Shown: one piece after another, positions 7,714-55,034 of the stretch | How the letters are laid out: each line of letters begins with the position of its first letter | Position numbering within the stretch: position 1 is the stretch's first letter | Source of the DNA: an uncultured Tropicimonas sp. | GTDB lineage: Bacteria; Pseudomonadota; Alphaproteobacteria; Rhodobacterales; Rhodobacteraceae | DNA length: 64,000 nucleotides | Direction: 5' to 3' | Assembly: GCA_947495685.1 (NCBI GenBank) | Contig: CANLZY010000018.1 | Coordinates: 3,244 to 67,243, forward strand | Notes under the pieces: generated by a model | What the model was told of the DNA's origin: nothing | The model's database searches: none | Seen by the model: only the letters and a program-made list of their open reading frames with translations | Position numbers and translations under genes: made by a program

Positions 7714-8573
7714 CACAGGCAATTCTCACACGGCCCGATGCCCGCCCCCCGGTTCTGATCGCCTCTCACCCGAGATCAGGCACCCATCTTGTTATAGATT
7801 TACTTCGCCGCCAGTTTTCATGCACGCGGAACTGGCGCTGGTGGGGATTGCCGCTCGATCATCTGTATCTGAATCTCGAAAGGCTGGGATCGAGCAATCG
7901 AAGCTTTTCGGACGCCCTTGCTCGGCAGATCGTGAACCGCCCCCAGAGGGCGCTCATGAAAACCCATTTCGAGGCTGACTTTTCCGGTAGCTGGGTGGCG
8001 GAAGAATCTCTCCCACTTGATCAAACCTGGCTCGATCTGGTGGCGCAGTCAAAAATAATCTACGTGGTTCGGCACCCGCTGGATGTGATGTGCTCATACC
8101 ACCAGTTCCTGTCCGCGATCGACCCTGACGTGGCCGGGATGCCGCTCATGACATTCATGGAAAGCACGCATTGGACCGGTGAGACCGACCGGCTGGGCTG
8201 GTGGGTGCAGCATGTAACCGGCTGGGAAGCGTTGTCAGGCGTAACCGTCCTACGGTACGAGGACATTGTGAAACGGACCGTCGACGCCTTGTCAGAGATA
8301 TCAGAGGACATTGGAGAGACCTCAATCGATCGCAAACCACGTCTTCCTCCCAAGATTACCTCGATCACCCGTACCCGAATGGACCGGCTGTTCAGTTTAT
8401 CGCCCAAGTCCACCGGCATTGTCGCAAATCGTGCGAGCTTTCCGGCGGTGAAATGGCAGGATGTGCTTGAGGATGCCCAGAAGGAGAAGATCGAAACTCG
8501 CTTGGCCCCGATGCTCGACCGGTTCGGGTATTCGTTGTCCAGGAACAAGCTTCGCGAGCGACCTTGGTCATGA
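7710..8573 (+). CDS. PAPS-dependent sulfotransferase family protein
   Basis: ATG 7710 overlaps the upstream stop. 5'-PSB-like loop SHPRSGTHLVIDLL and 3'-PB-like KIIYVVRHPLDVMCSYHQF. Confidence 0.75.
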   Translation: MTQAILTRPDARPPVLIASHPRSGTHLVIDLLRRQFSCTRNWRWWGLPLDHLYLNLERLGSSNRSFSDALARQIVNRPQRALMKTHFEADFSGSWVAEESLPLDQTWLDLVAQSKIIYVVRHPLDVMCSYHQFLSAIDPDVAGMPLMTFMESTHWTGETDRLGWWVQHVTGWEALSGVTVLRYEDIVKRTVDALSEISEDIGETSIDRKPRLPPKITSITRTRMDRLFSLSPKSTGIVANRASFPAVKWQDVLEDAQKEKIETRLAPMLDRFGYSLSRNKLRERPWS

Positions 8574-12165: not shown

Positions 12166-13314
12166 CTAAGTTGCCCAAGTCGGCAGTGCATAAGCCGAAA
12201 CCAGCCGTTGCCTCACAAAAGGATCAAGAGCTTCAGGAAAAAGCTTCTTCAACAGCACCCACTCCGGCGAAGACTGATCAACCTGATAGATCTCTCCCGT
12301 TCGATGCCCGTCGATTGCCTTTCGTAGATGTTTCCCCACGCTACCTTTGAGAAGATCCCTTTGAGAGGTGTTCGAGATGAGCTCAGTCAGAAGCTGTGCG
12401 AATCCAGGAAGTGTCTTTGAACTCAGATAGGTGTTCAGCATACCTTTGATGTTGTTGTGCTCGCTTGCGTAGTTGTGGGGCTTGCCAGCAGCCTCAGCCA
12501 CGATTGAAAAGGCTGCCGCCACCAGGCGATCTACTTTCTTCCGCTCACTGAAAGCCGACAGATCGTCGACACGCAGATCTTCGATGCGGTCTCCCCAGTC
12601 ATGGAATGCCCTGAAGTATGGCCTCCGCCTGTTGGAGATCTCATCAAGTAGCGGCTTCACCAAACGATCTTCCAGGAATGGAAGCTTGGATGCCGGGATT
12701 TCCAGCTCGTCGAACCGCGCGAGGACAGACCCTTCAAATCCAACTCCATCGGACAGGCAGCAAGAAAGTACCAGCGTGTTTTCCTGACGAGAAGCCGCGA
12801 CAGCCGCCTGATCCACGACAAAAGCATTCCCTCTGTGTCGGTGGATGACGTCGGAGACTGCTTGTGGGATTTTATCAGGGTCAAAGGTGGAAAACACCCA
12901 AAGTAGCGGAATCCCTTCCTTTTCGTAGTGCACGCAACGTTGTGACACCTCCGTTTGGAAAGTGTGGGACATCTGGTATTCCACAGCAAACTGACCGAAC
13001 CCACCCCAGTCCACAAAGACGTCGGGATACCGTCCTGTGTCGGTCTTGGTGGGCGCGATGTACTGATCAACCTTCGTGCTAACACATCGCTCATCTAACG
13101 CGGCCAACTCGGCAATTAGTTCGCACATTTTCCTATGTGCCAACGACTCCTGCTGACCATGATACTGGGCAGCTCTCGCATCATCAGGTTTTAGGTTTTT
13201 CCCCGTGTACCAAGGGCAACGCGGATCGGATCCTGCATAATGGGTAAAAAACGGCAACCCGTGGGAAGTTGAGATGTAAACAGGTCCCTGGCAGGCGATA
13301 CAGCGAGCAACCAA
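12166..13314 (-). CDS. CoiA-like nuclease-domain protein with an unassigned C-terminal extension
   Basis: N-terminal CxxC...H...C cluster (C5, C8, C33) followed by a PD-(D/E)xK-like core RYPDVFVDW...FAVEYQMSH, as in CoiA-family proteins. The last ~200 aa are not recognised. TTG start is uncertain. Confidence 0.55.
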   Translation of the reverse strand: MVARCIACQGPVYISTSHGLPFFTHYAGSDPRCPWYTGKNLKPDDARAAQYHGQQESLAHRKMCELIAELAALDERCVSTKVDQYIAPTKTDTGRYPDVFVDWGGFGQFAVEYQMSHTFQTEVSQRCVHYEKEGIPLLWVFSTFDPDKIPQAVSDVIHRHRGNAFVVDQAAVAASRQENTLVLSCCLSDGVGFEGSVLARFDELEIPASKLPFLEDRLVKPLLDEISNRRRPYFRAFHDWGDRIEDLRVDDLSAFSERKKVDRLVAAAFSIVAEAAGKPHNYASEHNNIKGMLNTYLSSKTLPGFAQLLTELISNTSQRDLLKGSVGKHLRKAIDGHRTGEIYQVDQSSPEWVLLKKLFPEALDPFVRQRLVSAYALPTWAT

Positions 13315-14351: not shown

Positions 14352-14954
14352 TCAAGCAACATCAAAAAAAAGGAACGGCGTCAGGTCAGAACCTTCGATG
14401 TCATCGGCAAGTTCCAACAGAGTTGTGTCCTTGATGGTAATCGTTCCGCCTGTCGACGTTTCGATAACCGCATTGTCACCATCTTGGAAGGCGCCGGTGA
14501 TCTCGAGGCCGTTCTTAAAGCGGATGGTGTCGATGTCGTCCTCGAAATGGAAGATCACGTCGTCATTGTCACCATCGTTGGAAGAAAACCAGAACTCGTC
14601 GGCTCCGAGCCCCCCCCCAAGCTTATCATCACCTGTACCGCCGACTATGATATCGTCACCTCTGGCGCCGAAGATGCGGTCATTCCCACTACCACCATTC
14701 AGAGTATCGTCACCTTTGCCCCCGAACAGTCTGTCTTTCCCCTCGTGACCATAGAGCAAGTCGTTGCCGTCTTGGCCATTCAAATTGTCGTTGCCCTCAT
14801 TGCCCCGCAGGTCGTCCTCACCCGTTCCACCTAGGATATAATCCTTTCCGTCAGACCCTTTGAGAAGATCATTTCCGCCTTGACCATCGATAAAATCGTC
14901 GTCGATGGTGCCTAGAATGGTTTGGCTCGTGTCGTCGCCAATAAGTATTGCCAT
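14352..14954 (-). CDS. RTX (hemolysin-type calcium-binding repeat) protein
   Basis: Tandem GGxGxDxUx nonapeptides (GGNDLLKGS, GTGEDDLRG, GNDNLNGQD, GNDLLYGHE, GKDRLFGGK, GDDTLNGGS, GNDRIFGAR, GDDIIVGGT, GDDKLGGG). An AT-rich stretch upstream (14955-15250) is a plausible promoter region. Confidence 0.85.
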   Translation of the reverse strand: MAILIGDDTSQTILGTIDDDFIDGQGGNDLLKGSDGKDYILGGTGEDDLRGNEGNDNLNGQDGNDLLYGHEGKDRLFGGKGDDTLNGGSGNDRIFGARGDDIIVGGTGDDKLGGGLGADEFWFSSNDGDNDDVIFHFEDDIDTIRFKNGLEITGAFQDGDNAVIETSTGGTITIKDTTLLELADDIEGSDLTPFLFFDVA

Positions 14955-20329: not shown

Positions 20330-20406
20330 CGGGGCGTAGCGCAGCCTGGTAGCGCGACGGTTTTGGGTACCGTAGGTCGCAAGTTCGAATCTTGCCGTCC
20401 CGACCA
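20330..20406 (+). tRNA. tRNA-Pro (anticodon TGG)
   Basis: Hand-folded cloverleaf. Acceptor CGGGGCG/CGTCCCG (one G-U), D arm GCGC-AGCCTGGTA-GCGC, anticodon arm ACGGT-TTTGGGT-ACCGT, T arm GCAAG-TTCGAAT-CTTGC, discriminator A, encoded CCA. Confidence 0.9.
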
Positions 20407-21405: not shown

Positions 21406-21492
21406 TGGTGCGGTCGAGAAGACTCGAACTTCCACGGGAGTTACCCCACAGCGACCTCAACGCTGCGCGTCTACCAATTCCGCCACGACCGC
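21406..21492 (-). tRNA. tRNA-Leu (anticodon GAG)
   Basis: The reverse complement folds as GCGGTCG-TG-GCGG-AATTGGTAGA-CGCG..CAGCG-TTGAGGT-CGCTG, a long variable arm, GGAAG-TTCGAGT-CTTCT, CGACCGC-A-CCA. 87 nt, class II tRNA. Confidence 0.9.
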
Positions 21493-25458: not shown

Positions 25459-25959
25459 GTGCCATACGAATGGATCCCTCCTGCCGCAGACGCAACCGAT
25501 GCCCCGGTCCACGAGTTGCACTTGTGGCCTCACCGCTCCCTGCCAAAACGCGGCTTTGTCGTTTTCATTGGCATCACCTTCGTACTGTTGTTGGTACCGC
25601 TGTTTCCTGCGATTGGCTCGCCCGTGCTTTGGGGCCTTCTGCCATTCCTGATGGGCACGCTTGCGCTGGTTTTCTGGGCGATCCAGAAGAGCTATCGCGA
25701 CGGCGAGGTGTTGGAAGATTTGCGCATCTGGGACACCCGGATCCGGCTGGAACGCCACGTGCCGCACACGCCGACACAGACGTGGGAGGCAAACCCGCAT
25801 TGGGTCGAGGTCACCCTGCATCCGACCGCCGGCCCCGTCCCGAACTATGTGACCCTGCGGGGCTCCGGACGCGAAGTCGAGATCGGTGCCTTCCTCAGCG
25901 ACGATGAGCGCCTTGACCTTTACAACGAACTGTCGCGATACCTTCCCACGAGGGGATGA
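25459..25959 (+). CDS. DUF2244-family integral membrane protein
   Basis: LHLWPHRSLPKRGFVVFIGITFVLLLVPLF...NPHWVEVTLHPTAGPVPNYVTLRGSGREVEIGAFLSDDER matches the DUF2244 layout often found next to ctaD. GTG 25459 (MPYEW...) is preferred and ATG 25342 is the alternative. The track start at 25192 lies inside the ctaD terminator. Confidence 0.7.
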   Translation: MPYEWIPPAADATDAPVHELHLWPHRSLPKRGFVVFIGITFVLLLVPLFPAIGSPVLWGLLPFLMGTLALVFWAIQKSYRDGEVLEDLRIWDTRIRLERHVPHTPTQTWEANPHWVEVTLHPTAGPVPNYVTLRGSGREVEIGAFLSDDERLDLYNELSRYLPTRG

Positions 25960-25963
25960 ACAG

Positions 25964-26878
25964 ATGACGCAGGTTCCGGCGACTCCAAAGACGCGGCGTG
26001 CAGGCATTCGGCTGGCGGCAGCCACGCTGGGGCCACGCTGGACATTCGATCACCTTGCGCAGCAGGCCTCCGAACTGGACGCGCTTGAGCGGCGCGCAAA
26101 TGCACGCCCTGTGCCCGCCGAGGACCCGTCCGTGGTGTTTCTGATCCCGCTGGTCGGGCGGCATCATGTGGACAATTGGACCGAGGTCCAGTCAAGACTT
26201 GCCGACACGATAGACAGCTTCCGCCACCAGACCTCTGGACGATGGAGCGCGCTGGTCTGTGGACAAGATCGACCGGAAAACGTGACCTTTGATTCGCAGG
26301 TTCGGTTCCTGCCCTTCACAACCCCATTCGACGGCAACGACAAGTGGGCAAAGCTGGAGCAACTATGCCTGGCGTTGCCGTCAGCGGGTACCAGCGATGG
26401 TTATGCCATGCCGTTTGACGCCGACGACCTACTGGCGCGCGGCGCCGTCGCTGAAATGACGACCCGGAAGGAGCGAAACGGCTATCTTGTGACCCGTGGC
26501 CTGATCACGGATGCCCAGAGCCGTCAGGTGGGGCTCTGTGCCCCCCAGAGCCTGCTGCACCCGGGGCGCAAGGCCTTCTGGAAGATGTGCGGCAGTTGCG
26601 CCGCGTTCCGGTTCGATTTCAGCCACTCGACCCGCGATGCCGAGTATTTGGCGGCCGTGACCAGCCACGAACACCGGATGTTCCCGTATCTTGCCGCACT
26701 CGCCGGGCGACGGCTGGCGTCCCTGCGGCAGGAGGCGGTGATGTACATCGTCAATCACGGAGAAAACTTTGGCAAACGCCGCGGGCGGGTCGGGTTCAAG
26801 ACCCGCTATGTCTCGCGCCACGAGATCACCGACGCCAAGGCCCATGCCCGCATCAGGGCAGACTTCCCGACAGTGTAA
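25964..26878 (+). CDS. Glycosyltransferase family 2-like protein (putative)
   Basis: ATG 25964, 5 nt after the upstream stop. VVFLIPLVGR... and a DxD-like MPFDADDLL are consistent with a GT-A fold. The rest is unrecognised. Confidence 0.5.
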   Translation: MTQVPATPKTRRAGIRLAAATLGPRWTFDHLAQQASELDALERRANARPVPAEDPSVVFLIPLVGRHHVDNWTEVQSRLADTIDSFRHQTSGRWSALVCGQDRPENVTFDSQVRFLPFTTPFDGNDKWAKLEQLCLALPSAGTSDGYAMPFDADDLLARGAVAEMTTRKERNGYLVTRGLITDAQSRQVGLCAPQSLLHPGRKAFWKMCGSCAAFRFDFSHSTRDAEYLAAVTSHEHRMFPYLAALAGRRLASLRQEAVMYIVNHGENFGKRRGRVGFKTRYVSRHEITDAKAHARIRADFPTV

Positions 26879-27510: not shown

Positions 27511-27972
27511 TTAGCTGAGTTGAGATTTTACTTGCGGGCCGACCGATCCGAAATCCATCTGCCCTGTGTATTTCGCCTTCAGGGCGCCAATGACCCTGCC
27601 CATGTCGCGGATGCTTTCGGCACCGGTCTCGGCAATCGCGGCGGTGATGGCTTTCTGGACTTCTTCCTCGCTCAACTGGCGCGGCAGGAATTCCTCCAGA
27701 ACCTTGACTTCGGCCAGTTCCTTTTCCGCCAGCTCCAGACGTCCACCCTCTTCGTAGGCGCGTGCGCTTTCCTGGCGCTGCTTGACCATCTTGCCAAGGA
27801 TTTGCAGCACATCTGCATCCGAAACACCCACCGTCGCGCCCTCTGTCCGGGTCGCGATGTCCCGATCCTTTATGGCCGCAGTGATAAGCCGCAGGGTCGA
27901 CAGTCTGTCGGCCTGCTTGTTGCGCATGGCGTCTTTCAGGCCGGCGCTTACTCGGTCTCTCAAAAGCATCAT
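27511..27972 (-). CDS. GatB/YqeY domain protein
   Basis: MLLRDRVSAGLKDAMRNKQADRLSTLRLITAAIKDRDI... is a typical YqeY. Divergent from carA, as in many alphaproteobacteria. Confidence 0.88.
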   Translation of the reverse strand: MMLLRDRVSAGLKDAMRNKQADRLSTLRLITAAIKDRDIATRTEGATVGVSDADVLQILGKMVKQRQESARAYEEGGRLELAEKELAEVKVLEEFLPRQLSEEEVQKAITAAIAETGAESIRDMGRVIGALKAKYTGQMDFGSVGPQVKSQLS

Positions 27973-28117
27973 CCGAATGTCCTCTGGGTGTCCCAACCTC
28001 GGGGCCGCTACCTAATGCTTTCGCCCCGTGTTGACAACCTGTCGCGCCACGAGGTCGGGTTGACGCCCTGACGCCTGCCCCATAGGTTGCCGCAGATTTG
28101 CCCGCAGGAGTCGCCCA

Positions 28118-29275
28118 ATGCCACAAACCAGACCCACCGCATGTCTTGCCCTCGCCGACGGCACGCTGTTCTACGGACAGGGGTTCGGTGCCACTGGCCA
28201 GACCGTTGCAGAGCTGTGTTTCAACACCGCGATGACCGGGTATCAGGAGATCATGACCGACCCGTCCTATGCCGGGCAGATCGTGACATTTACCTTTCCG
28301 CATGTCGGAAACGTCGGTGTGAACCCGGACGACGACGAAACCGCCGATCCGGTGGCTGCGGGCATGGTGGTGAAATGGGATCCGACATCGCCGTCGAACT
28401 GGCGTGCCGCAGAGCCGTTGACCACTTGGCTGGCGCGTCGCGGACGGATCGGCATGGGCGGGGTGGATACGCGTCGCCTGACCCGTGCAATCCGGATGCA
28501 GGGTGCCCCCCATGCCGCGCTGGCGCATAACCCGGACGGGGTTTTCGACATCCAAGGCCTCGTCAAGGCGGCCCGCAGCTTTGCTGGTCTCGAAGGACAA
28601 GATCTGGCGCGAGGCGTCACTTGTGCCCAATCTTATCGTTGGGACGAAATGCGGTGGGCCTGGCCTGAAGGATACCGAAACCGCGAAACGCCCGGTCACA
28701 AGGTCGTGGCACTCGACTATGGCGCCAAGCGCAACATCCTGCGCTGCCTGGCCTCGGCTGGTTGCGACGTTACGGTGTTGCCCGCCACCGCCACGGCCGA
28801 GGAGGTCCTGGCCCATTCGCCTGACGGGGTTTTCCTGTCGAACGGTCCCGGCGACCCGGCTGCAACCGGGGAATATGCCGTGCCGATGATTCGCACGATT
28901 CTGGACACGACCGAGCTTCCGGTGTTCGGGATCTGCCTTGGGCATCAGATGCTCGCGCTGGCGCTTGGTGCACGCACCATCAAGATGAACCACGGGCACC
29001 ACGGCGCCAACCATCCGGTCAAGGATCTGGAAACCGGCAAGGTCGAGATCACCTCCATGAACCACGGCTTCACCGTGGACAGCCAAACCCTGCCAGACAA
29101 CGTTGCTGAAACCCATGTTTCGTTGTTCGATGGGTCCAATTGCGGCATTCGCATGAAGGATCGACCAGTCTTTTCGGTGCAGTACCACCCCGAGGCAAGC
29201 CCCGGCCCGCAGGACAGCTACTACCTGTTCGAACGTTTCGCTGCTGCAATGGTAGCACGCTCCGAAACTGTTTGA
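28118..29275 (+). CDS. carA: Carbamoyl-phosphate synthase small (glutaminase) subunit
   Basis: [33 protein letters not shown], catalytic GICLGHQ and [11 protein letters not shown]. Confidence 0.97.
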
Positions 29276-29369
29276 ATCGTCCATTGAGAGAGTGGTCTCT
29301 CGGTTAATGCTCCGTTAACCAGCCCCCCGGCAGAGTTCCCCGACTTTCAGGGTACTCTAGAGGCTTGAA

Positions 29370-31334
29370 ATGACTGCTCTTACGCGCCTCCCGTTTCAAA
29401 GAACCGGGCCTTTGCTGTCTGACGCATCTGCCCCGATCGGCGCCGCGCCGCGCCGCCGGGTCATTTCCGGCAGGCAACGGTCGCGCGATTTGCTGGGACA
29501 GAGACTGGTCGAGCGGGGCGCCGTCGATCCCGGGGATCTGGTCAAGGCGTTGGCGATGCAGGCCCGGCAGGACACGCGACTGGGCGACATACTGGTCGCC
29601 AACAGCATGGTCTCGGAAGCGGCGCTGATGGAGACGCTGGCCGATCAATGGGGCACCGGCGTTGTCGATTTCACCGGGTCTCCGCCCGACACCCGGCTGA
29701 TCGACCAATATGGGCCCACGCGGTGCCTGACCGATGGCCTGTTGCCCTGGCGACGTGCTGGCAGCACCGTGATCGTAGCGACCACACGGCCGGAGAAATT
29801 CAACACAAAGCGGGCAGACCTCGAAGCCGTGTTCGGCACCGTGACGATGACGTTGACAACCGAAACCGATCTGCACGTTGCACTGACCAAAGTGCGCAAC
29901 CCTGCCCTGGCCGTTCAGGCGGAACTACGCGTGCCCTGCGATCTTTCCTGCCGCACCTGGAACGGGGCGGCGGCGGCCCGGCTGATCCTCGCGGCCTGCC
30001 TGATTGCCCTCTGCGTTGCCATCCTGTGGCCGGTAGCCTCATTCTCCTTTCTAGCACTCTGGGCAATCGTCACGTTGGCAGCGACTCTGGGTCTGAAAAC
30101 CGCCGCGCTGGTTTCTGCGATCAACCGATCCCGGGGCGAACAACGGCGAACCTGGATAGACCGACAACCTGCGTCGACAACCATCGCGCGGCTGCCCACA
30201 GTCTCGGTCATGGTCCCGTTATTTCGCGAACAGGACGTCGCCGGAAAACTGGTCAAACGTCTGAGCCGTCTCGCCTATCCCAAGGAGCTTCTGGATATCG
30301 TGCTGGTCGTCGAGGAGACCGACGGACAGACCGCCGAGGTCCTCTCCCGGACGCGTTTGCCGCGCTGGATGCGGGTCGTGACCGTGCCAACGGGCGGGGT
30401 CCAGACCAAGCCCCGCGCCCTGAACTACGCGCTGGACTTCTGTCGAGGACAGATCATCGGCGTCTGGGATGCAGAAGACGCCCCGGAAGCGGACCAGATC
30501 CACACGGTCGTGCGCCGTTTTCATGAACGCGGCCCCGAGGTGGCCTGCCTCCAGGGTGCACTCGACTATTACAACGCACGTACAAACTGGCTAAGCCGCT
30601 GTTTCACCATCGAATATGCCAGCTGGTTCGGGGTTGTCCTGCCGGGACTTCAGCGGATGAAGCTGGCCTTGCCATTGGGCGGGACGACGTTGTTCTTTCG
30701 CCGCGCGGCGCTGGAGCAACTCGGCGGCTGGGATGCGCACAACGTGACCGAAGACGCGGACCTGGGCATGCGCCTCGTCCGCAAGGGGTATCGGACCGAG
30801 ATGATCGAGACCGTGACACGGGAAGAGGCCAATTGCCGGTTCCTGCCGTGGATCAAGCAGCGGTCGCGCTGGCTCAAGGGGTATGCGATGACCTGGGGCG
30901 TTCACATGCGCAAGCCATTGCAATTGTGGAAAGATCTCGGGGCATGGCAGTTTGCCGGGTTCCAGATCCTGTTCCTGGGAACCTTGTCACAGTTTCTGTT
31001 GGCCCCGGTGCTGTGGTCGTTCTGGTTGCTCGCCTTCGGCTTGCCGCATCCACTGACCGGCGTGATTCCGAGTGCGCTGTACTGGCCGTTGATGGGGTTG
31101 TTCGTCTTGTCGGAACTTGTGAACCTGTCGATTGGTGCCTTTGCCGTGCGGGATCGAAACCGACGATTTCTGACCCCCTGGGTCGTGACGATGCACGCCT
31201 ATTTCCCGCTGGCCGCATTTGCCTCCTACAAGGCATTCTACGAAATCCTGACCAAGCCGTTCTACTGGGACAAGACAAGTCACGGCCTGCACGACGAGAG
31301 CGGCGTCAACGATCCAGACGCCCCTGCGGCATAG
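29370..31334 (+). CDS. Processive family-2 glycosyltransferase (polysaccharide synthase) with an N-terminal MshEN/T2SSE_N-like domain
   Basis: aa 41-64 LLGQRLVERGAVDPGDLVKALAMQ and aa 70-93 RLGDILVANSMVSEAALMETLADQ form tandem 24-aa MshEN-type motifs separated by 5 aa. TM helices follow, then a GT2 core with DAED, TED (NVTEDADLG) and QxxRW (QRSRW), and C-terminal TM helices. Confidence 0.8.
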   Translation: MTALTRLPFQRTGPLLSDASAPIGAAPRRRVISGRQRSRDLLGQRLVERGAVDPGDLVKALAMQARQDTRLGDILVANSMVSEAALMETLADQWGTGVVDFTGSPPDTRLIDQYGPTRCLTDGLLPWRRAGSTVIVATTRPEKFNTKRADLEAVFGTVTMTLTTETDLHVALTKVRNPALAVQAELRVPCDLSCRTWNGAAAARLILAACLIALCVAILWPVASFSFLALWAIVTLAATLGLKTAALVSAINRSRGEQRRTWIDRQPASTTIARLPTVSVMVPLFREQDVAGKLVKRLSRLAYPKELLDIVLVVEETDGQTAEVLSRTRLPRWMRVVTVPTGGVQTKPRALNYALDFCRGQIIGVWDAEDAPEADQIHTVVRRFHERGPEVACLQGALDYYNARTNWLSRCFTIEYASWFGVVLPGLQRMKLALPLGGTTLFFRRAALEQLGGWDAHNVTEDADLGMRLVRKGYRTEMIETVTREEANCRFLPWIKQRSRWLKGYAMTWGVHMRKPLQLWKDLGAWQFAGFQILFLGTLSQFLLAPVLWSFWLLAFGLPHPLTGVIPSALYWPLMGLFVLSELVNLSIGAFAVRDRNRRFLTPWVVTMHAYFPLAAFASYKAFYEILTKPFYWDKTSHGLHDESGVNDPDAPAA

Positions 31335-31342
31335 CGGTCGAC

Positions 31343-31370
31343 AGCAGATAGCAGATAGCAGATAGCAGAT
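31343..31370. repeat. Perfect heptanucleotide tandem repeat (AGCAGAT)x4
   Basis: agcagat agcagat agcagat agcagat, 9 nt after the TAG stop of the GT2 synthase, in a convergent intergenic region. Confidence 0.95.
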
Positions 31371-31521
31371 CGTTCCGATGAACGACCACGCCGCCTTGCT
31401 TCCGGTGGGGGTCCCTCGCTTTTTCCAACGAGGGGAGCCCTCAATGCGCGGACACCACGCGGCAGACCTGTCCGTGCCACCGCCACTTGCTCCGCAAAGA
31501 TGCGACAGGTTTGATGATTCA

Positions 31522-31552
31522 TGCCCCCGCGCGATTGACACACGCGGGGGCA
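31522..31552 (-). terminator. Strong hairpin just downstream of tkt (possible terminator)
   Basis: 10-bp perfect stem TGCCCCCGCG/CGCGGGGGCA with an 11-nt loop, 6 nt beyond the tkt stop. No clear U-tract. Confidence 0.35.
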
Positions 31553-31557
31553 CGTGA

Positions 31558-33555
31558 TCAGGCGGATGCCGTCCCAGCCTCGACGGGCAGCGAAGTGAGA
31601 ACGCGTTCCACGATGGCCGCTTCGGTGATTCCGAAATGCTCGAACAACTCTTCGGCAGGGGCCGAGGCACCAAAGCTCGACATGCCGACAAAGATGCCGT
31701 CTTCGCCAATGAACCGCTCCCAGCCAAGACGCACGGCGGCCTCGACGGCCAAGCGCACGGTTCCACGGCCGACGACCTTGGATCGATACGCGGCGTCCTG
31801 TTGCTCGAATATCTCCCAACAGGGCACGGATACCACGGCCGTCGGCACACCCTGTGCCTCGAGTCGTTTCCGGGCCGCCAGCGCAATCTGCACCTCGGAC
31901 CCGGTGGCAAACAGCGTCACACGGCGTTTTTCGGACGCGTCTGCCAGAACGTAGGCCCCTCGCGCGCAGGCGTTTTCCGCACCAGCGGATTCACGAACGG
32001 TCGGAAGGTCCTGACGCGACAGGATCAGTGCACTTGGCCCTGATCGGTTGGCAAGCGCCAATTCCCAGCACTCTGCGGCTTCGACGCCGTCCGCCGGACG
32101 GAACACGTTCAGGTTGGGCATGGCGCGCAGGCTGGCCAGATATTCGACCGGCTGGTGCGTCGGCCCGTTGCGCCCGACCCCGATGCTGTCGTGGCTGAAA
32201 CCGAACAGCACTGGAAGCCCCATCAGGGCCGCCATCCGGAGGGCGTGACGCTCATAGTCGGAGAACACGAGGAAGGTGATGCCAAAGGGAACAACACCGC
32301 CATGCGCGGCCATGCCGTTCATCATCGACCCCATGGCAAACTCGCGCACCCCATAGTGCAGATAGCGGCCACCACGGTTGGTGGCGGTGAAGGGTTGCAG
32401 CCGACGCTTGTGCTTTGTCGCAGCCTCAAGGTCGGGTGCGCCGCTTGTCAGTTCCGGAATGACATCGCTGAGCGCATCGAGGATCTCGCCAGAGGATGCG
32501 ACCGTCGGCTGTTCCGGCCGGACCGTAGCATAGTGGACCTTGCGGTTGGCAAGCACCTCACGCCAACCGTCTGGAAGGCGCCCGATGGCAAGACGTTCGA
32601 ACTCCGCCCGGACCTCGGGGGCAGCCTGTTCCAGCCGGGTTTGCCAGGCCACGCGTTCCGCGTTGCCGCGCCGCCCACCGTCCCGCCAGGGCGTCAACAG
32701 GTCCTTGGGCACGTCGAATGGGTCGTGCGTCCAGTTCATCAACTCGCGCGCGGCAACAGCATCCTCGGGGAGCAGTTTGCCACCGTGGGCCACCCGCTCA
32801 CCCGCAATGCGCGGCACACCGTGACCGATCTGGGTGTGGCAGATGACGAAGGACGGACGCGGATCTCTCTTGGCCAGCAGGATCGCGGCGTCGATGGCGT
32901 CGGGGTCATGCCCGTCACATTCGACGACATGCCAGCCGGCGATGCGGAACCGCGCGGCCTGATCCTCGCTTTCGGCCTGCACCAACTCGCCGTCGTCGGT
33001 TATGTGGTTGCTGTCGAACAGGAAGATCAGATGCCCCAGCTTGAGGTGCCCGGCAAGTGCCAGAACCTCGGCTGCGATGCCCTCCATAAGGCAACCGTCG
33101 CCCACCAGCGCATAAGTGTAGTGATTGCACAGTTCCGGTCCGAACTCTGCGCGCAGTTTTTCCTCGGCCACGGCCATGCCGACGGCATTGGCGATGCCCT
33201 GCCCGAGGGGGCCGGTCGTGGTCTCGATTCCGGCTTCGGGATCGAACTCCGGGTGACCGGGGCAGTGCGAGCCGAGTTCGCGGAACCGCTTCACCTCGTC
33301 CAGCGAGATCTTGGCAAAGCCTGCAAGGTGGTTGGCCGCATAGAGCAGCATCGAGCCGTGGCCGTTGGACTGAACGAACCGGTCGCGGTCCGGCCAGGTC
33401 GGGTCGGCGGCGTCGAACTTGAGGTGCCGATTGTAGAGAGTGGTCACGATGTCGGCGGCGCCCAGTGGCGTGCCGGGGTGGCCATCGCCAACATGCACGA
33501 TCGTGTCGATCGCAAGGAACCGGATCGCGTCGGCCATGCGGGAAAGGTCTGCCAT
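31558..33555 (-). CDS. tkt: Transketolase
   Basis: GHPGTPLGAADIVTTLY, DRDRFVQSNGHGSMLLYA, GDGCLMEGI and a C-terminal transketolase domain. 665 aa. Confidence 0.95.
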   Translation of the reverse strand: MADLSRMADAIRFLAIDTIVHVGDGHPGTPLGAADIVTTLYNRHLKFDAADPTWPDRDRFVQSNGHGSMLLYAANHLAGFAKISLDEVKRFRELGSHCPGHPEFDPEAGIETTTGPLGQGIANAVGMAVAEEKLRAEFGPELCNHYTYALVGDGCLMEGIAAEVLALAGHLKLGHLIFLFDSNHITDDGELVQAESEDQAARFRIAGWHVVECDGHDPDAIDAAILLAKRDPRPSFVICHTQIGHGVPRIAGERVAHGGKLLPEDAVAARELMNWTHDPFDVPKDLLTPWRDGGRRGNAERVAWQTRLEQAAPEVRAEFERLAIGRLPDGWREVLANRKVHYATVRPEQPTVASSGEILDALSDVIPELTSGAPDLEAATKHKRRLQPFTATNRGGRYLHYGVREFAMGSMMNGMAAHGGVVPFGITFLVFSDYERHALRMAALMGLPVLFGFSHDSIGVGRNGPTHQPVEYLASLRAMPNLNVFRPADGVEAAECWELALANRSGPSALILSRQDLPTVRESAGAENACARGAYVLADASEKRRVTLFATGSEVQIALAARKRLEAQGVPTAVVSVPCWEIFEQQDAAYRSKVVGRGTVRLAVEAAVRLGWERFIGEDGIFVGMSSFGASAPAEELFEHFGITEAAIVERVLTSLPVEAGTASA

Positions 33556-33567
33556 GTCTGTCTCCCC

Positions 33568-34521
33568 TCAGAGCAGGTCGTTGAGCATGCGCATCGTCGA
33601 GGTCGGATTGCGATCAGCATAGCGCCGCGCCATGTCATCCTTGTCGATGCGGGTGGAAAGCTCCTTGAGCTTGTTGGCGATCGCCGCCGCATCGGTGAAG
33701 ACCTGCGGGCTGTCGTGCTCCTTGCAGACGATGTCGAAGGCGATCCAGTCGTCATAGCCGAGGCGCTCAAGGGTGAAGAACAGTTCGACGAACTCCCAGG
33801 TGTGCCAGGTCCCCGGCGTCAGGTCCCAGTCGCCGCGGGTGTCGTTGTCATTGATGTGGACATAGAAGAGGCGATTGCACCTGTGCAGTAGCGCAGCCGA
33901 GGCAGCCGGGTTTTCGCCCGCGAGGAAGCAGTGGCCCGCGTCCAGCGTCGCGCCAAGATTCTTTGCCCCGACGATATCGGCGAACGCGATCAGCTCGCCG
34001 GCATTGCCGATCTGGCAGCGCACGCGGGGCTCGTTGATCTTGTATTCGATGCAGACGTTGATGTCCCGGTTATGGGCGCAGATCTGCTCGAAGCAACCCG
34101 CAGAATAGTCCAGCGCCGCGATGGGGTCGAGTTCGAACGGATAGTCGAACCCTTCGTTCAGCGGGCAGTTGTGCAGCCGGGTTGCGCCAAGTTCCGCAGC
34201 AAGGTCCATGGCGCGCTTGGCGTCATCGACAGCAGCCTGCCGTTCTGCCGGGTCCTGCGCGGTCCATGCGCCGCGCAGCCAGCGGTCGTTGCGCACCGAG
34301 GCGAAGTTGATCGCCGAAACGGCGAGGTTGTTGCGCTTCAGAGCCTCCTTGGTCGCTGGGATGTCGACGGTATCGGCCGGGTAGCGGAGTTCAACCGCGC
34401 CGATCCCTTCGGCAGCGCCGGCCCGATCCAGATGCGTCGGCGTGTCGGCGGCATCCTGATAGATCATAAACCGGTTCTTGGTCTGCCCCAGGAAGAGCGT
34501 GATGATGGAAAGCTTGAGCAT
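33568..34521 (-). CDS. Sugar phosphate isomerase/epimerase (xylose-isomerase-like TIM barrel)
   Basis: Starts at the internal ATG (MLKLSIITLFLGQ...). AVELRYP, LAAELGATRLH, INVCIEYK and ATLDAGH are typical of the AP_endonuc_2 TIM barrel. The track's upstream 128 codons are Arg/Pro-rich and overlap the next gene. Confidence 0.8.
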   Translation of the reverse strand: MLKLSIITLFLGQTKNRFMIYQDAADTPTHLDRAGAAEGIGAVELRYPADTVDIPATKEALKRNNLAVSAINFASVRNDRWLRGAWTAQDPAERQAAVDDAKRAMDLAAELGATRLHNCPLNEGFDYPFELDPIAALDYSAGCFEQICAHNRDINVCIEYKINEPRVRCQIGNAGELIAFADIVGAKNLGATLDAGHCFLAGENPAASAALLHRCNRLFYVHINDNDTRGDWDLTPGTWHTWEFVELFFTLERLGYDDWIAFDIVCKEHDSPQVFTDAAAIANKLKELSTRIDKDDMARRYADRNPTSTMRMLNDLL

Positions 34522-34550
34522 GGCCGTATCCTTGACTGCCTTGGCGCTGG

Positions 34551-35522
34551 TTAGAATTCTCCGCTGACGACGTGGCGCGGGGCGCCGCCTACGAATGCCT
34601 CGATAAGGTCGATCAGTTGATCGGCCAGGGTCTGCTGCGCCTCGAGACTGGCCCAGGCGACATGTGGGGTGACGATGGTGTCCGGCCGGGTCGCCAGACG
34701 CATGATGGTGCTGTCGGGCGCTGGCGGCTCGGGCAGGGTCACGTCCAGTCCGGCGCCGTTGACGAGACCGCGGTCGAGCGCTTTTTCGAGGTCCTCCTCC
34801 ACGATCAGCGGGCCACGGGCGGTGTTGATGATAAGCGGGCGGCGACCCATGGATTCGAATTCGACCATGCCCAACAGGCCCTGCGTCGCAGGGATCAGCG
34901 GGCAATGAAGGCTCAGCACATCACTGTTGGCCATCACCTCCGGCCAGGGGGTGTAGAGCGGACCCAATCCATCGGCCCCCTTGTGGGCTGCGAACAGAAC
35001 CTTCATTCCAAACGCCCGCGCAAGGGTGGCGACACCCTGCCCCAACGCCCCTTCGCCTATGATCCCAAGCGTCGCCCCTGACAGGTCCCGGATGGGGTGA
35101 TCATGAAAACAGAATTGCCCTGCGTCCTGCCATCTGCCGGCCCTCACATCATCGCGATAGCCCATCAGGCTGCGGCGCAGGGCAAGCATCAAGGCAAAGA
35201 CATGTTCAGGGACCGTCACACCGGCATAGCCGCGGATGTTCACAACCGTGATCCCAAGGGCCTGGCAGGCAGCCTTGTCGATGCAATCGGTGCCCGTGGC
35301 GGCAACGGCAATCAGGCGCAGTTTCGGCAGCTGTTCAAGGCTCTCGCGGGTCAGCCTTACCTTGTTGACGATGGCGACATCCGCGTCGCGCAGCCGCGGA
35401 ACGACCTGGTCCGGCGCCGTTGACGCATGATCCTTCCAGCAATGCGGAAAGGACGGAGATCGAAGGCGGACATCGTCCGCAAGGGTTGCCGCATCCAGAA
35501 AGACGATCGTGTGTTCAGCCAT
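34551..35522 (-). CDS. D-isomer-specific 2-hydroxyacid dehydrogenase (glycerate/hydroxypyruvate reductase-like)
   Basis: NAD loop GIIGEGALGQGVATLARAFGMKV, INTARGPLIVEEDL and TPHVAWAS. Confidence 0.88.
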   Translation of the reverse strand: MAEHTIVFLDAATLADDVRLRSPSFPHCWKDHASTAPDQVVPRLRDADVAIVNKVRLTRESLEQLPKLRLIAVAATGTDCIDKAACQALGITVVNIRGYAGVTVPEHVFALMLALRRSLMGYRDDVRAGRWQDAGQFCFHDHPIRDLSGATLGIIGEGALGQGVATLARAFGMKVLFAAHKGADGLGPLYTPWPEVMANSDVLSLHCPLIPATQGLLGMVEFESMGRRPLIINTARGPLIVEEDLEKALDRGLVNGAGLDVTLPEPPAPDSTIMRLATRPDTIVTPHVAWASLEAQQTLADQLIDLIEAFVGGAPRHVVSGEF

Positions 35523-35731
35523 GTCATGCCTCACTCACACCGGGTTACACCTGCGTGCATACTGTAAAGTATACTTTAATGCGCGCAATGCGACATGACG
35601 CACGTTTCTCACCAACGGACCGGCATCATGGAAGCCAGAACGCATTCGGCGGCACTACCGAGAGGGGCATGTCCGACATCAAGGGAAGTCAGGGGGGCTG
35701 GTCGGACACTGTTTCTCAGCCCGGCCGTTGA

Positions 35732-52501: not shown

Positions 52502-52792
52502 ATGTCCAAGAACCTCAAAGCCCTCGCCCTGATCGGTGCCGTCGCTGCTGCCGTGACCGCCACTGCCACCACTCAGGCCGTCGCCGCCGACAAGGAAAAG
52601 TGCTTCGGCGTCTCGATGGCCGGCAAGAACGACTGCGCCGCCGGCCCCGGCACCACCTGTGCCGGCACCTCCAAGGTCGACTACCAGGGCAACGCCTGGA
52701 CGCTGGTCGACGCCGGTACCTGTGAAAAGATGGAACTGCCGGACGGCCGCATGGGGTCGCTGGAAGCACTCGATCGCGACCTGCCCGCGTAA
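52502..52792 (+). CDS. bufA: DUF2282-family bufferin-type RiPP precursor, copy 2
   Basis: 96 aa. Signal peptide [28 protein letters not shown]. The core is nearly identical to copy 1 (one indel, one T/K change). It has its own AGGAAA-type RBS. Confidence 0.8.
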
Positions 52793-52816
52793 GCCTTGCA
52801 GTTCTTGACCACCCCG

Positions 52817-52842
52817 TGTGCCCGGCCGCAATGCCGGGCACA
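52817..52842 (+). promoter_or_regulatory. Intercistronic stem-loop between precursor genes and the modification enzyme (possible attenuator or processing site)
   Basis: Perfect 10-bp stem TGTGCCCGGC/GCCGGGCACA with a 6-nt loop, followed by TCTTTCC. It sits 25 nt after the bufA2 stop and 26 nt before the bufB ATG. Confidence 0.5.
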
Positions 52843-52867
52843 TCTTTCCAGACCGGACGGACACACC

Positions 52868-53722
52868 ATGCTCGACGCCAACCTTCAGGACCACCTGCCC
52901 CTGGCCCCTGGGGTCGGCTACAAACCGCAGCATTTCTCGGATATCATGACCGATCCCGGTGCGGTGCGATGGCTGGAAATCCATGCCGAGAACTACATGG
53001 GCGATGGCGGACGGCCGATGGCCCAGTTGCGCCATCTGGCGGAACGGTTCCCGATGTCGGTGCATGGCGTCGGCCTGTCCATTGGTGGCGAGGGACCGCT
53101 GGACCGCGACCACCTTGCTCGGCTGTCTCACCTGGTGAAATGGTTAAACCCGGCCAGCTTTTCGGAACACCTCGCGTGGTCTACTCACGAGTCAGCCTTT
53201 CTGAACGACCTACTGCCCCTGCCCTACACCACAGCAACCCTGTCCCGGGTCGCCGATCACATTGATCAGGTACAGGACGCCATCGGGCGGCGGATGCTGC
53301 TTGAAAATCCGTCGACCTACCTCGCATTTGCTGAAAACGAGATGTCCGAAACTGATTTCCTGCGAGACATCGCGCGCCGGACCGGGTGCGGGCTGCTGCT
53401 CGACGTCAACAACGTATTTGTCTCCGCCACCAACCAGCAGACAGACCCGCGCGCCTACATCGCCGACTTTCCATTGGAGCATGTTGGCGAAGTTCACCTG
53501 GGCGGACACGACGAACAGGAAGACGAACACGGCGCGCCGCTGTTGATCGATTCCCACGGCGCCGAGGTCGTGGACCCGGTCTGGACGCTCTACAGCGAGA
53601 CCATCGTCGCGATGGGGCCCCGCCCGACGCTGATCGAATGGGACAACGACGTACCCGATTGGCCCGTGCTGGCCGCCGAAGCTGATCGCGCGGCCCGACT
53701 GCTCGCCCCGGTGCTGCAATGA
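52868..53722 (+). CDS. bufB: DUF692 / MNIO (multinuclear non-heme iron oxidative) enzyme
   Basis: [44 protein letters not shown] and [12 protein letters not shown] are characteristic of the DUF692 TIM barrel. ATG 52868 (track start 52796 is TTG). Confidence 0.85.
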
Positions 53723-54477
53723 CCGTCACTCAGGCCGATTTTCAGGCCGCCATTCTGGACCCGGACCGGGCTGTACCGGGCGGGTTGGTGGACCCTCAGG
53801 GCCGAATTGCCGGCAAGCGGTTCGACGTGTACCGCAACAACGTGGTGGTCAGCCTCTCCAACGCGCTTGGCGAGGCCTTCCCGGTGATCAAGAAGCTTCT
53901 GGGCGACAACAATTTCAACATTCTGGCCGGGCAATTCGTCCGCCAGCATCCGCCGTCGTCACCGGTCATCGCACTCTATGGCGATGAAATGCCCGGGTTT
54001 CTGGAAACCTTCGAACCGGTGCAGTCTCTTGGCTACCTGCCAGATGTTGCGCGGTTGGAACTGGCATTGCGTCAAGCCTATCACGCCGCCGACGCGACCG
54101 CCTTTGACGCGACCATCCTGCAGGACCTGCCCCCGGATCGCCTGTTGTCCGCGCGTTTCACGCTGGCGCCGGCTTTCAGGATGATCGTATCGGACTGGCC
54201 GATCGTTTCCATCTGGCGCTTCAACTCCGAAGATGGCCCAAAGCCATCGATGCGCGCCGAAACCGCGTTGATCACCCGGCCGGACCTGGATCCGACGGTG
54301 GCTGACCTGTCGCCCGCCGGTGGCGCCATGGTTGCCGCCCTGGCGAACCGCGACACCTTCGGCGACGCGATGGAGGCCGCAACGGCGCAGGATCCGGACT
54401 TCGACCTGACCGAAACCCTGAGCGCCCTGATCGCAGGCGGCGCCATCATTGCCATCACCGAGGAGCCCCTGAAATGA
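53719..54477 (+). CDS. bufC: DUF2063-family partner protein of the MNIO enzyme
   Basis: ATG overlaps the bufB stop (ATGA). [45 protein letters not shown] is the DUF2063 N-terminal signature. Confidence 0.8.
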
Positions 54478-55034
54478 CCGCAATCCTCTCTCTGCATGAC
54501 CGGGTTTTTGACCGGATCGATGCGGCTCTGTCCTCCTGGGCTCTGCCAACGCTGGCGCGTTTTTCTTTTGCCGCCGTGCTGCTGATGTATTTCTGGGGGT
54601 CTGCCAGCACCAAGTTGGGGGACGGGATCTTTGGTATCTTCGTGCCGTCCACCGGTGCCTATGCACAGATTTTTCCGTTGAAGGCCGAGGCCGTTCTGTA
54701 CGATAGCAGCCAGTTCTCGATCTTTGAAAAGCTGGTGATCCTGGCCGGCACCTGGGCCGAATTCATCCTGCCATTGCTGATCGTAATTGGCCTGCTCACC
54801 CGTCTGGCCGCCATTGGCATGATGGGCTTCGTCGTCGTACAGAGCCTGACCGACATCCACGGGCATCATGCGGACGCCGCCACCATCGGCGCCTGGTTCG
54901 ACCGGGCCTCCGACAGCCTGATCATGGATCAACGTACCTTCTGGATGTTCGTCCTGATCACCCTCGTACTACGCGGCGCGGGTCCGTTGTCTGTCGATCG
55001 GTTGATCGGCATCGGGCGGCCGGTCGAGGCCTGA
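54474..55034 (+). CDS. DoxX-family membrane protein (fourth gene of the bufferin-type operon)
   Basis: ATG overlaps the upstream stop. Four hydrophobic helices. LARFSFAAVLLMYFWGSASTKL...AEFILPLLIVIGLLTRLAAIGMMGF is DoxX-like. Confidence 0.75.
   Translation: MTAILSLHDRVFDRIDAALSSWALPTLARFSFAAVLLMYFWGSASTKLGDGIFGIFVPSTGAYAQIFPLKAEAVLYDSSQFSIFEKLVILAGTWAEFILPLLIVIGLLTRLAAIGMMGFVVVQSLTDIHGHHADAATIGAWFDRASDSLIMDQRTFWMFVLITLVLRGAGPLSVDRLIGIGRPVEA

Follow-up and report, generated by a model that had tools for sequence, protein, structure and literature searches.

A MshEN-glycosyltransferase synthase of Rhodobacterales, predicted to be controlled by c-di-GMP and preceded by a conserved CtrA-type box

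Wang et al. (2016; PMC5013675) reported that MshEN, a domain that binds cyclic dimeric guanosine monophosphate (c-di-GMP), occurs fused to glycosyltransferases (GTs). Their Supplementary Table 4 contains both orders of the fusion: "Glyco_trans_2_3 - MshEN", with Escherichia coli NfrB as the example, and "MshEN - Glyco_trans_2_3", with Rhodobacter sphaeroides Rsph17029_0522 (ABN75638) as the example, given there with no experimental reference and with a spread across Actinobacteria, Firmicutes and Proteobacteria. In 2021, NfrB was found to bind c-di-GMP through its MshEN domain with a Kd of ~1 µM, and both c-di-GMP binding and GT activity were found to be needed for a secreted polysaccharide that is the receptor of phage N4. 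Here we analyze a gene of the second kind, an open reading frame (ORF) of 654 amino acids at positions 29370..31334 (+) of a 64,000-nucleotide stretch of DNA, hereafter the window, from an uncultured Tropicimonas sp. of the Rhodobacteraceae (assembly GCA_947495685.1, contig CANLZY010000018.1, positions 3,244 to 67,243; ~60% G+C). The combination of MshEN with a family 2 glycosyltransferase (GT2) is not new, as it was catalogued in 2016, and the logic of MshEN standing in for a PilZ domain was shown for NfrB in 2021. What is new here is a conserved CtrA-type box before the gene, and the protein is a further member of the catalogued family.

The observed domain identities, motif conservation, fold, synteny and box conservation together make it likely, in our view, that this gene encodes an inner-membrane processive GT2 that is activated by c-di-GMP through its N-terminal MshEN domain, is transcribed from its own CtrA-type promoter and produces a surface or biofilm glycan. 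Within this reading, we infer the binding of c-di-GMP, the sign of its effect (activation rather than inhibition), the CtrA identity of the box, and the nature and destination of the polymer.

The N-terminal part of the protein holds two 24-residue repeats in tandem, residues 41-64 (LLGQRLVERGAVDPGDLVKALAMQ, nt 29490-29561) and residues 70-93 (RLGDILVANSMVSEAALMETLADQ, nt 29577-29648), joined by the 5-residue spacer ARQDT. The published MshEN motif likewise consists of two 24-residue repeats, RLGxx(L/V/I)(L/V/I)xxG(L/V/I)(L/V/I)xxxxLxxxLxxQ, with 5 residues between them (Wang et al. 2016; PMC5013675). A preliminary description of this DNA, made by reading the sequence, had held that the repeats fit this motif. 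Their positions, the tandem layout and the spacer length all stand, and nucleotides 29490..29648, named there as the coding region of the motif, do encode residues 41-93, but the fit is not exact: of the 11 positions that the strict motif specifies, each repeat agrees at 9. In repeat 1, the exceptions are position 1, where L replaces R, and position 11, which is A; in repeat 2, they are position 10, where S replaces G, and position 11, which is M. The relaxed pattern of Wang et al. accommodates both repeats except at position 1 of repeat 1 (L). Among profile hidden Markov models (HMMs), NCBIfam NF053729 ("c-di-GMP_motif, MshE-related") matches the whole of residues 42-93 at 52.2 bits (cutoff 38; E 4e-14), Pfam MshEN PF05157 covers the C subdomain, residues 95-177, with a marginal 24.3 bits (cutoff 23.1), and the PilB N-terminus of TIGR02538 aligns to residues 42-177. 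The HMM check that the preliminary description had suggested thus found models for the sensor and for Glyco_trans_2_3 (NF053729, PF05157 and PF13632), with NF053729 and PF05157 above their cutoffs. A six-frame translation of the window contains a single match to the relaxed tandem pattern, and 30 shuffles gave none; this uniqueness and the two scores for NF053729 and PF05157 place the motif match far beyond chance.

Alignment to a solved structure shows how the repeats relate to a known binding site. In a phmmer search against PDB sequences, residues 38-145 align without a gap to Vibrio cholerae MshE (5HTL). For repeat 1, this alignment equates L41 with R9, L42 with L10, G43 with G11, G50 with G18, L57 with L25, L61 with L29 and Q64 with Q32; for repeat 2, it equates R70 with R38, L71 with L39, G72 with G40, S79 with G47, L86 with L54, L90 with L58 and Q93 with Q61. 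All six guanine-stacking leucines of MshE are kept, as are both contact glycines (G43 and G72) and both glutamines. In MshE, two hydrophobic triangles made up of the six leucines stack against the guanine bases, while the glycines provide backbone amide contacts and the glutamines bind ribose and phosphate; mutations of the hydrophobic residues lower the affinity more than 10-fold, and changes of Arg9, Asp12 or Gln32 alter it less than 5-fold (Wang et al. 2016). Across 120 homologues, the set to which all residue conservation given below refers, the key binding positions are 75-99% conserved, all nine key contacts are present in 109 sequences, and the spacer is 5 residues long in every one. 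The residue at the Arg9 position is P in 80 homologues, L in 22 and R in 7, and that at the Gln32 position is Q in 60 and R in 55.

The modeled fold agrees with the alignment. The AlphaFold2 (AF2) helices of the motif region span residues 42-48, 54-66, 71-77 and 83-94, and the model of residues 36-190 reaches a predicted local distance difference test score (pLDDT) of 88. In Foldseek, the best PDB match of this model is c-di-GMP-bound MshE (5htl_B; TM-score TMt 0.84, root mean square deviation [rmsd] 2.4 Å, 137 columns), and the next are c-di-GMP-bound GSPII-B domains of PilF. The gapless register with MshE puts the motif residues at equivalent positions, so the structural equivalence on which the preliminary description had made its proposal depend holds, both in the alignment and in the superposition on 5HTL. 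Altogether, these comparisons of sequence and model support the view that the N-terminal MshEN domain is a competent c-di-GMP sensor.

The catalytic part of the protein is covered by two GT2 families of Pfam, PF13641 (106.9 bits) and PF13632 (98.6 bits, residues 365-558), which together span residues 276-558; the Pfam scan also gave a weak match to Glyco_transf_21. Three motifs are invariant among the homologues, D367-A-E-D370, T460-E-D462 and Q497-R-S-R-W501. An acidic cluster, E314/E315/D318, aligns with CDDGGTD of BcsA, and its E315 and D318 are invariant as well. The D, DxD, TED and QRSRW motifs of the preliminary description are therefore all present, with the acidic cluster as the first D. 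The sequence alignment to BcsA covers residues 273-552. In the full-length AF2 model (pLDDT 90, predicted TM-score [pTM] 0.88), residues 1-35 alone are disordered, and QRSRW sits on an interface helix. The best structural neighbours of this model are BcsA, the Chlorella-virus and Xenopus hyaluronan synthases and the chitin synthases, with Foldseek alignments to 4p00, 7sp6 and 8smm that extend over 450-550 columns and include the transmembrane parts. Those to BcsA (4p00, 528 columns) and 7sp6 run through residues 516-628, a set of helices that presumably forms the glycan channel, and the predicted transmembrane hairpin between the sensor and the catalytic domain would put both on the same cytoplasmic side. 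The GT2 motifs and fold matches agree with the earlier placement of the protein among membrane-embedded synthases like BcsA and hyaluronan synthase, and they support its assignment as a processive GT2 that is predicted to form a polymer.

The C-terminal tail may hold the link between sensor and enzyme. Residues 629-640 are the most conserved short segment of the protein (0.83), and W633, K635, T636, H638 and G639 are invariant. Gating loops carry the motif FxVTxK in BcsA and WGTR in hyaluronan synthase. By analogy, WDKTSH is a candidate gating element, one that could transmit the action of the sensor.

The family is large. There are thousands of full-length homologues, and nearly all of those listed carry precomputed MshEN and GT2 Pfam assignments. 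A HMMER search against 50%-identity representatives found 2293 proteins below 1e-30, and the best 150 of these are largely colinear with the window protein from about residue 40 to residue 640, down to 30-35% identity. The closest named homologues come from Tropicimonas (74% identity), Aliiruegeria, Actibacterium, Rhodobacter capsulatus and Celeribacter; that of R. capsulatus has 56% identity and identical synteny. Homologues are also found in Sulfitobacter and Roseobacter spp., and every sampled Roseobacter sp. carries the synthase gene beside carA. When one genome per species was scanned, at least 599 GTDB species had a confirmed relative, and the best 80 were all Rhodobacterales. Gene order in the relatives is fixed as ctaD, DUF2244, YqeY(-), carA, GT, GntR(-) and HAD, with carA immediately 5' of the GT gene in 79 of 83 related loci. 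Distant relatives vary more in their domains: up to six tandem MshEN domains, a REC domain with two MshEN domains, or a TIG domain can precede the synthase (P0427, P0436, P0456 and P0451), and others have C-terminal extensions of 250-400 residues that have no Pfam match (P0429, P0431 and P0459).

The short interval between carA and the synthase gene holds a TTAA-N7-TTAA element. This is the single occurrence in the 64-kb window, for which 0.06 would be expected. Of 76 orthologous carA-GT intervals (mean length, 244 nt), 75 have the element. The related loci, 1.33 Mb in all, contain it 93 times, and 86 of these occurrences fall within the 18.5 kb that the intervals make up. After shuffling, 0.04 of the 76 intervals had it, and among the divergent YqeY-carA intervals next to them it occurred in 0 of 71. 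When the related loci are aligned on the box, the consensus reads gTTAACc-N5-TTAACC, with GCAA..(t)T downstream at +25 to +32. Counted from where the box starts, the start codon is mostly 55-68 nt away, and some loci contain a second or third copy at a phasing of 11 nt. In PMC4046655, TTAA-N7-TTAA(C) serves as the CtrA consensus, both in Caulobacter and in defining the CtrA regulon of Dinoroseobacter shibae. Because the conserved box matches this consensus, we propose a separate promoter for the gene, in which the CtrA box occupies the -35 position. From its sequence and position, the box is probably the -35-overlapping operator of that promoter; CtrA would be the protein that binds it, and the sign of the effect can be put forward only tentatively. 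In a 2026 study of Roseobacter denitrificans (PMC13392355), mutants of the CtrA phosphorelay up-regulated a gene called "xagB" and formed up to threefold more biofilm. This would fit control by CtrA, possibly repression, if "xagB" is the orthologue of the synthase gene.

How might such an enzyme work? We picture a cytoplasmic MshEN sensor with an intact motif, tethered by the transmembrane hairpin to a GT2 like BcsA and hyaluronan synthase (HAS) that ends in a WDKTxH tail. Without c-di-GMP, the enzyme would be autoinhibited, as suggested by NfrB and BcsA. One c-di-GMP molecule bound across the two repeats would re-orient the sensor and free the gating element, and the active enzyme would then polymerize a sugar supplied as its uridine diphosphate (UDP) conjugate and extrude the chain over the inner membrane through its own transmembrane channel. 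This would be an NfrB-like mode of working in which the sensor precedes the catalytic module instead of following it. The supply of enzyme would be set by the CtrA phosphorelay and its firing, after translation, by c-di-GMP. The product would be a surface or biofilm glycan, and it may double as a phage receptor.

Several observations weigh against this picture, and they concern the sensor, the promoter and the export of the product. With respect to the sensor, repeat 1 lacks the guanine-stacking Arg of MshE and has L at that position (mostly P in the family), repeat 2 has Ser at the turn Gly that corresponds to Gly47, half of the family has R for Gln32, and a literature search found no binding or activity data for any N-terminal MshEN-GT2. 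The domain could then be a degenerate, non-binding module for docking or oligomerization, like the N-termini of Xanthomonas XpsE or PilB, which would leave the synthase outside c-di-GMP control. Third among the structural matches of the sensor model is the X. citri PilB-N/PilZ complex, and many MshEN domains have lost binding (Wang et al. 2016). However, XpsE lost binding through changes at G11, I19, L29, R38, G40, L54, L58 and Q61, and all of these except I19 (A) are kept here; the same positions are 75-99% conserved in the synthase family, whose window member also passes the NF053729 cutoff. NfrB has the same P and R departures and yet binds c-di-GMP, the mutation of Arg9 in MshE is one of those with less than a 5-fold effect, and these organisms have no PilZ protein that could be docked (Wang et al. 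2016). With the residues lost from XpsE kept and a PilZ partner lacking, we regard a degenerate domain as very unlikely. With respect to the promoter, a simple sigma-70 scan of positions 27900-31700 found no promoter in the carA-GT gap and one terminator-like site at chance level, the box is assigned to CtrA by its match to the consensus only, and R. denitrificans "xagB" and RD1_1962 (discussed below) are no more than candidate orthologues of the synthase gene. A search for RNA-seq data of the source organism turned up low-share metagenome contigs only. The element might instead belong to another regulator or be a structural or attenuator element of the carA-GT transcript, and with its flanks it forms an inverted repeat, GGTTAA...TTAACC, that would suit a dimeric regulator. 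Against this stand the agreement of TTAAC-N6-TTAAC with the CtrA consensus for Caulobacter and D. shibae, the 11-nt phasing of the two or three copies in some loci, the fixed distances to the downstream GCAA..T and to the start codon, the absence of the element from the neighbouring divergent promoter region, and the shifted expression of the gene labelled xagB in Roseobacter CtrA-pathway mutants (PMC13392355). An element that is not a CtrA site thus seems unlikely to us.

The destination of the product is a more serious question. No gene for periplasmic or outer-membrane export of a polysaccharide lies near the synthase gene in the window or is linked to it in related genomes, and neither the window nor any of the 83 related loci has a linked gene like those for BcsB/BcsC, PgaA/PgaB or NfrA/YbcH, the neighbours being housekeeping genes. 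The preliminary description had seen no adjacent export genes, which is true both of the window and of ~80 related genomes, and with such a neighbourhood here and in the relatives, its term "stand-alone" is correct for the neighbourhood. Since there is no linked export partner, unlike in nfrBA-ybcH, bcs and pga, a secreted exopolysaccharide (EPS) is not assured. The enzyme might respond to c-di-GMP yet make an oligo- or polysaccharide that stays in the periplasm or bound to the cell, or else a glycolipid, for which no outer-membrane exporter is needed. The lack of a linked exporter in ~80 genomes makes this a real possibility, albeit one that we consider somewhat improbable. Some pipelines name homologues "beta-monoglucosyldiacylglycerol synthase", and the weak Glyco_transf_21 match points in the same direction. 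However, the QxxRW and TED motifs, the C-terminal WDKTxH and the channel-forming helices match those of polymer-translocating synthases, partner genes can be unlinked, and the glycolipid name is automatic. The c-di-GMP-activated synthase of a surface or biofilm glycan remains our preferred reading.

If this synthase is a c-di-GMP receptor, what else in these organisms could be one? Supplementary Table 5 of Wang et al. (2016) includes four Rhodobacterales species, Paracoccus denitrificans, R. capsulatus, R. denitrificans and Ruegeria pomeroyi, each of which has GGDEF/EAL proteins, exactly one MshEN protein and no PilZ or other receptor. Taken together with our homology and synteny results, this single MshEN protein is the synthase described here; the identification is direct for R. 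capsulatus, and we infer it for the other three. The synthase is probably the only dedicated c-di-GMP receptor of Rhodobacterales. In the window, no GGDEF or EAL gene lies near the synthase gene, and Rfam gave no c-di-GMP riboswitch or other RNA near it, the two tRNAs at 20.3 and 21.4 kb being the only matches.

This bears on a lead from phage resistance. RD1_1962 of R. denitrificans, described as an "NfrB homologue", was mutated in ~40% of phage-resistant isolates, its loss abolished phage adsorption, and the gene complements (PMC13392355). RD1_1962 may well be an orthologue of the synthase, given that R. denitrificans has a single MshEN protein and that every sampled Roseobacter has the synthase gene. 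Protein searches seeded with the Sulfitobacter and then the Roseobacter orthologue returned many Roseobacter spp. and no record named R. denitrificans, and searches for locus tags neighbouring RD1_1962 gave no match.

Rhodobacterales such as roseobacters, Rhodobacter and Paracoccus alternate between swimming and attached life. It is tempting to see in the synthase the single dedicated c-di-GMP output of the order, made under the direct control of CtrA and fired by c-di-GMP, "just in time" like a holdfast. With no linked exporter, it would produce a surface glycan that drives the change from swimming to sticking and is also the receptor missing from phage-resistant R. denitrificans (RD1_1962). 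We offer this wider scenario as a tentative one, possible but on balance doubtful. The synthase would nonetheless be the obvious candidate for what connects c-di-GMP to the cell surface in these ecologically dominant marine bacteria, and the CtrA-type box would be a concrete piece of wiring between the CtrA phosphorelay and c-di-GMP output. If the role in making a phage receptor is true, the control of biofilm would be linked to phage susceptibility in the ocean.

Table 1. Coordinates in the window of the synthase gene, its predicted parts and the upstream box
Feature	Position (nt)	Strand	Basis or remark
CtrA-type box TTAATGCTCCGTTAA, TTAA-N7-TTAA (with flanks, GGTTAA-N7-TTAACC)	29304..29318	+	51 nt before the ATG, in the 94-nt carA-GT gap
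MshEN-GT2 synthase gene	29370..31334	+	ORF and translation; stop codon included
Disordered, poorly conserved, Arg-rich N-terminal tail, residues 1-35	29370..29474	+	pLDDT <50; mean column identity 0.21
MshEN_N four-helix bundle, two 24-residue repeats and 5-residue spacer	29490..29648	+	NF053729; gapless 5HTL alignment; AF2 helices
MshEN_C (T2SSE_N1-like) alpha/beta subdomain, residues 95-177	29652..29900	+	PF05157; TIGR02538; domain model
Transmembrane hairpin, helices ~199-219 and 221-263	29964..30158	+	DSSP of AF2 model; hydrophobic sequence
GT2 (GT-A fold) catalytic domain, residues 276-503	30195..30878	+	PF13641, PF13632; invariant motifs
DAED, TED and QRSRW	30468-30479, 30747-30755, 30858-30872	+	Motifs in the GT2 domain
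C-terminal membrane/interface helices, residues 516-628	30915..31253	+	AF2 helices 516-543, 568-592, 596-628
WDKTSH motif, residues 633-638, candidate gating-loop element	31266..31283	+	Invariant residues; NfrB likeness

The synthase gene lies between carA (28118-29275, +) and a convergent tkt (31558-33555, -), just as the preliminary description had it. An antisense ORF of 190 amino acids (29304..29876, -) overlaps the start of the gene and is most likely spurious, as is common at ~60% G+C. On the downstream side, tkt, a xylose-isomerase-like TIM-barrel gene and a D-2-hydroxyacid dehydrogenase gene (together 31558..35534, -) separate the synthase gene from GntR in the window. The three genes were not detected in the 83 related loci, in which GntR, where found, comes directly after the synthase gene. 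On the upstream side, an ORF of 330 amino acids (25886..26878, +) between the DUF2244 and GNAT/YqeY genes has no Pfam or NCBIfam match and occurs in the same place in 4 of the 83 related loci.

Other parts of the window are of interest in their own right. Its first part (28..~11940, +) is a Wzx-type polysaccharide cluster with a Polysacc_synt_3 flippase, three GT4 genes, a sulfotransferase (7710-8573), a hexapeptide acyltransferase, a methyltransferase and a GT2. We considered this cluster as a partner of the synthase and rejected it: it is 17 kb away, lies outside the conserved synteny and is of a different pathway type. A filter on G+C content by codon position that selected the core genes left out several ORFs of the cluster, a possible sign of differing composition. 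The cluster is followed by an ORF for a CoiA-like nuclease (12166-13314, -) and by an RTX-repeat ORF (14352-14954, -), and tRNA genes lie at 20330-20403 (+) and 21409-21492 (-); the region looks like an island and is not within the conserved synteny of the synthase gene. Farther downstream, positions 52502..55034 (+) hold an ORF of 96 amino acids, an enzyme of the MbnB/TglH/ChrH family (52796-53722), a DUF2063 protein (53719-54477) and an ORF of 186 amino acids, a layout of the type seen in modification clusters for ribosomally synthesized and post-translationally modified peptides (RiPPs).

Among the closest characterized proteins is NfrB. Both proteins combine a GT2 bearing DxD, TED and QxxRW with an MshEN sensor, and both have WDKTxH after the last membrane helices; in NfrB this is WDKTTH at residues 470-475, directly before its MshEN domain. 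Repeat 1 of NfrB is of the PLGQIL type (RPLGQILLENQVITEEQLDTALRNR; PLGQIL...ALRNR) and has both departures that run through the synthase family, P at position 1 and R at position 24. The presumed logic, in which c-di-GMP would switch on polymer synthesis, is the same by analogy. In contrast, NfrB has the reverse domain order, GT2 and then MshEN, the GT parts of the two proteins share only ~23-28% identity (hhalign probability 95%) and their MshEN parts 26%, and the spacer between repeats is 4 residues in NfrB and 5 here. NfrB is encoded in an operon with outer-membrane NfrA and periplasmic YbcH, whereas the window gene stands alone between carA and tkt (carA and GntR in relatives). The protein is not an NfrB orthologue: PRK11234 scores 40.7 against a cutoff of 1170, and through the MshEN part only, the order is reversed, and there is no nfrA or ybcH.

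BcsA is likewise a membrane-embedded processive GT2, and it is the best match in both sequence and fold among solved structures. However, its c-di-GMP sensor is a C-terminal PilZ domain, and it depends on BcsB, whereas the window protein has no PilZ match and no bcsB nearby; with a TIGR03030 score of 54.8 (cutoff 699) in addition, we rejected an identity with BcsA. The same holds for the poly-N-acetylglucosamine (PNAG) synthases PgaC and IcaA (TIGR03937, 70.4 against a cutoff of 422.3; no pga neighbours). The hyaluronan synthases of Chlorella virus and Xenopus, chitin synthase and NodC are similar in type, a single polypeptide that polymerizes and translocates, and the hyaluronan/chitin synthase group gives the best TM-scores for the GT and transmembrane core (7sp6, the Chlorella-virus hyaluronan synthase; TMt 0.60, rmsd 5.4 Å). 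These enzymes differ in having no sensor for a nucleotide second messenger, and their identity to the window protein is 14-18%. The sensor itself shares its fold and the register of its binding motif with V. cholerae MshE and Thermus thermophilus PilF, in which the domain regulates a secretion or pilus ATPase and not a glycosyltransferase.

The name XagB also needs comment. Joint Genome Institute (JGI) naming by KEGG Orthology (KO) labels members of the family "glycosyltransferase XagB", and the likeness to the Xanthomonas protein is this automatic label only. XagB belongs to a four-gene operon for biofilm EPS (xagABCD), unlike the solitary window gene, and it contributes to biofilm once the HD-GYP phosphodiesterase RpfG is deleted. 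From the group of Rsph17029_0522, here compared by the description of the catalogued example, the window protein has no known difference: in the same bacterial order, an N-terminal MshEN is followed by Glyco_trans_2_3, and the window protein has this architecture, with PF05157 at residues 95-177 and PF13632 at residues 365-558.

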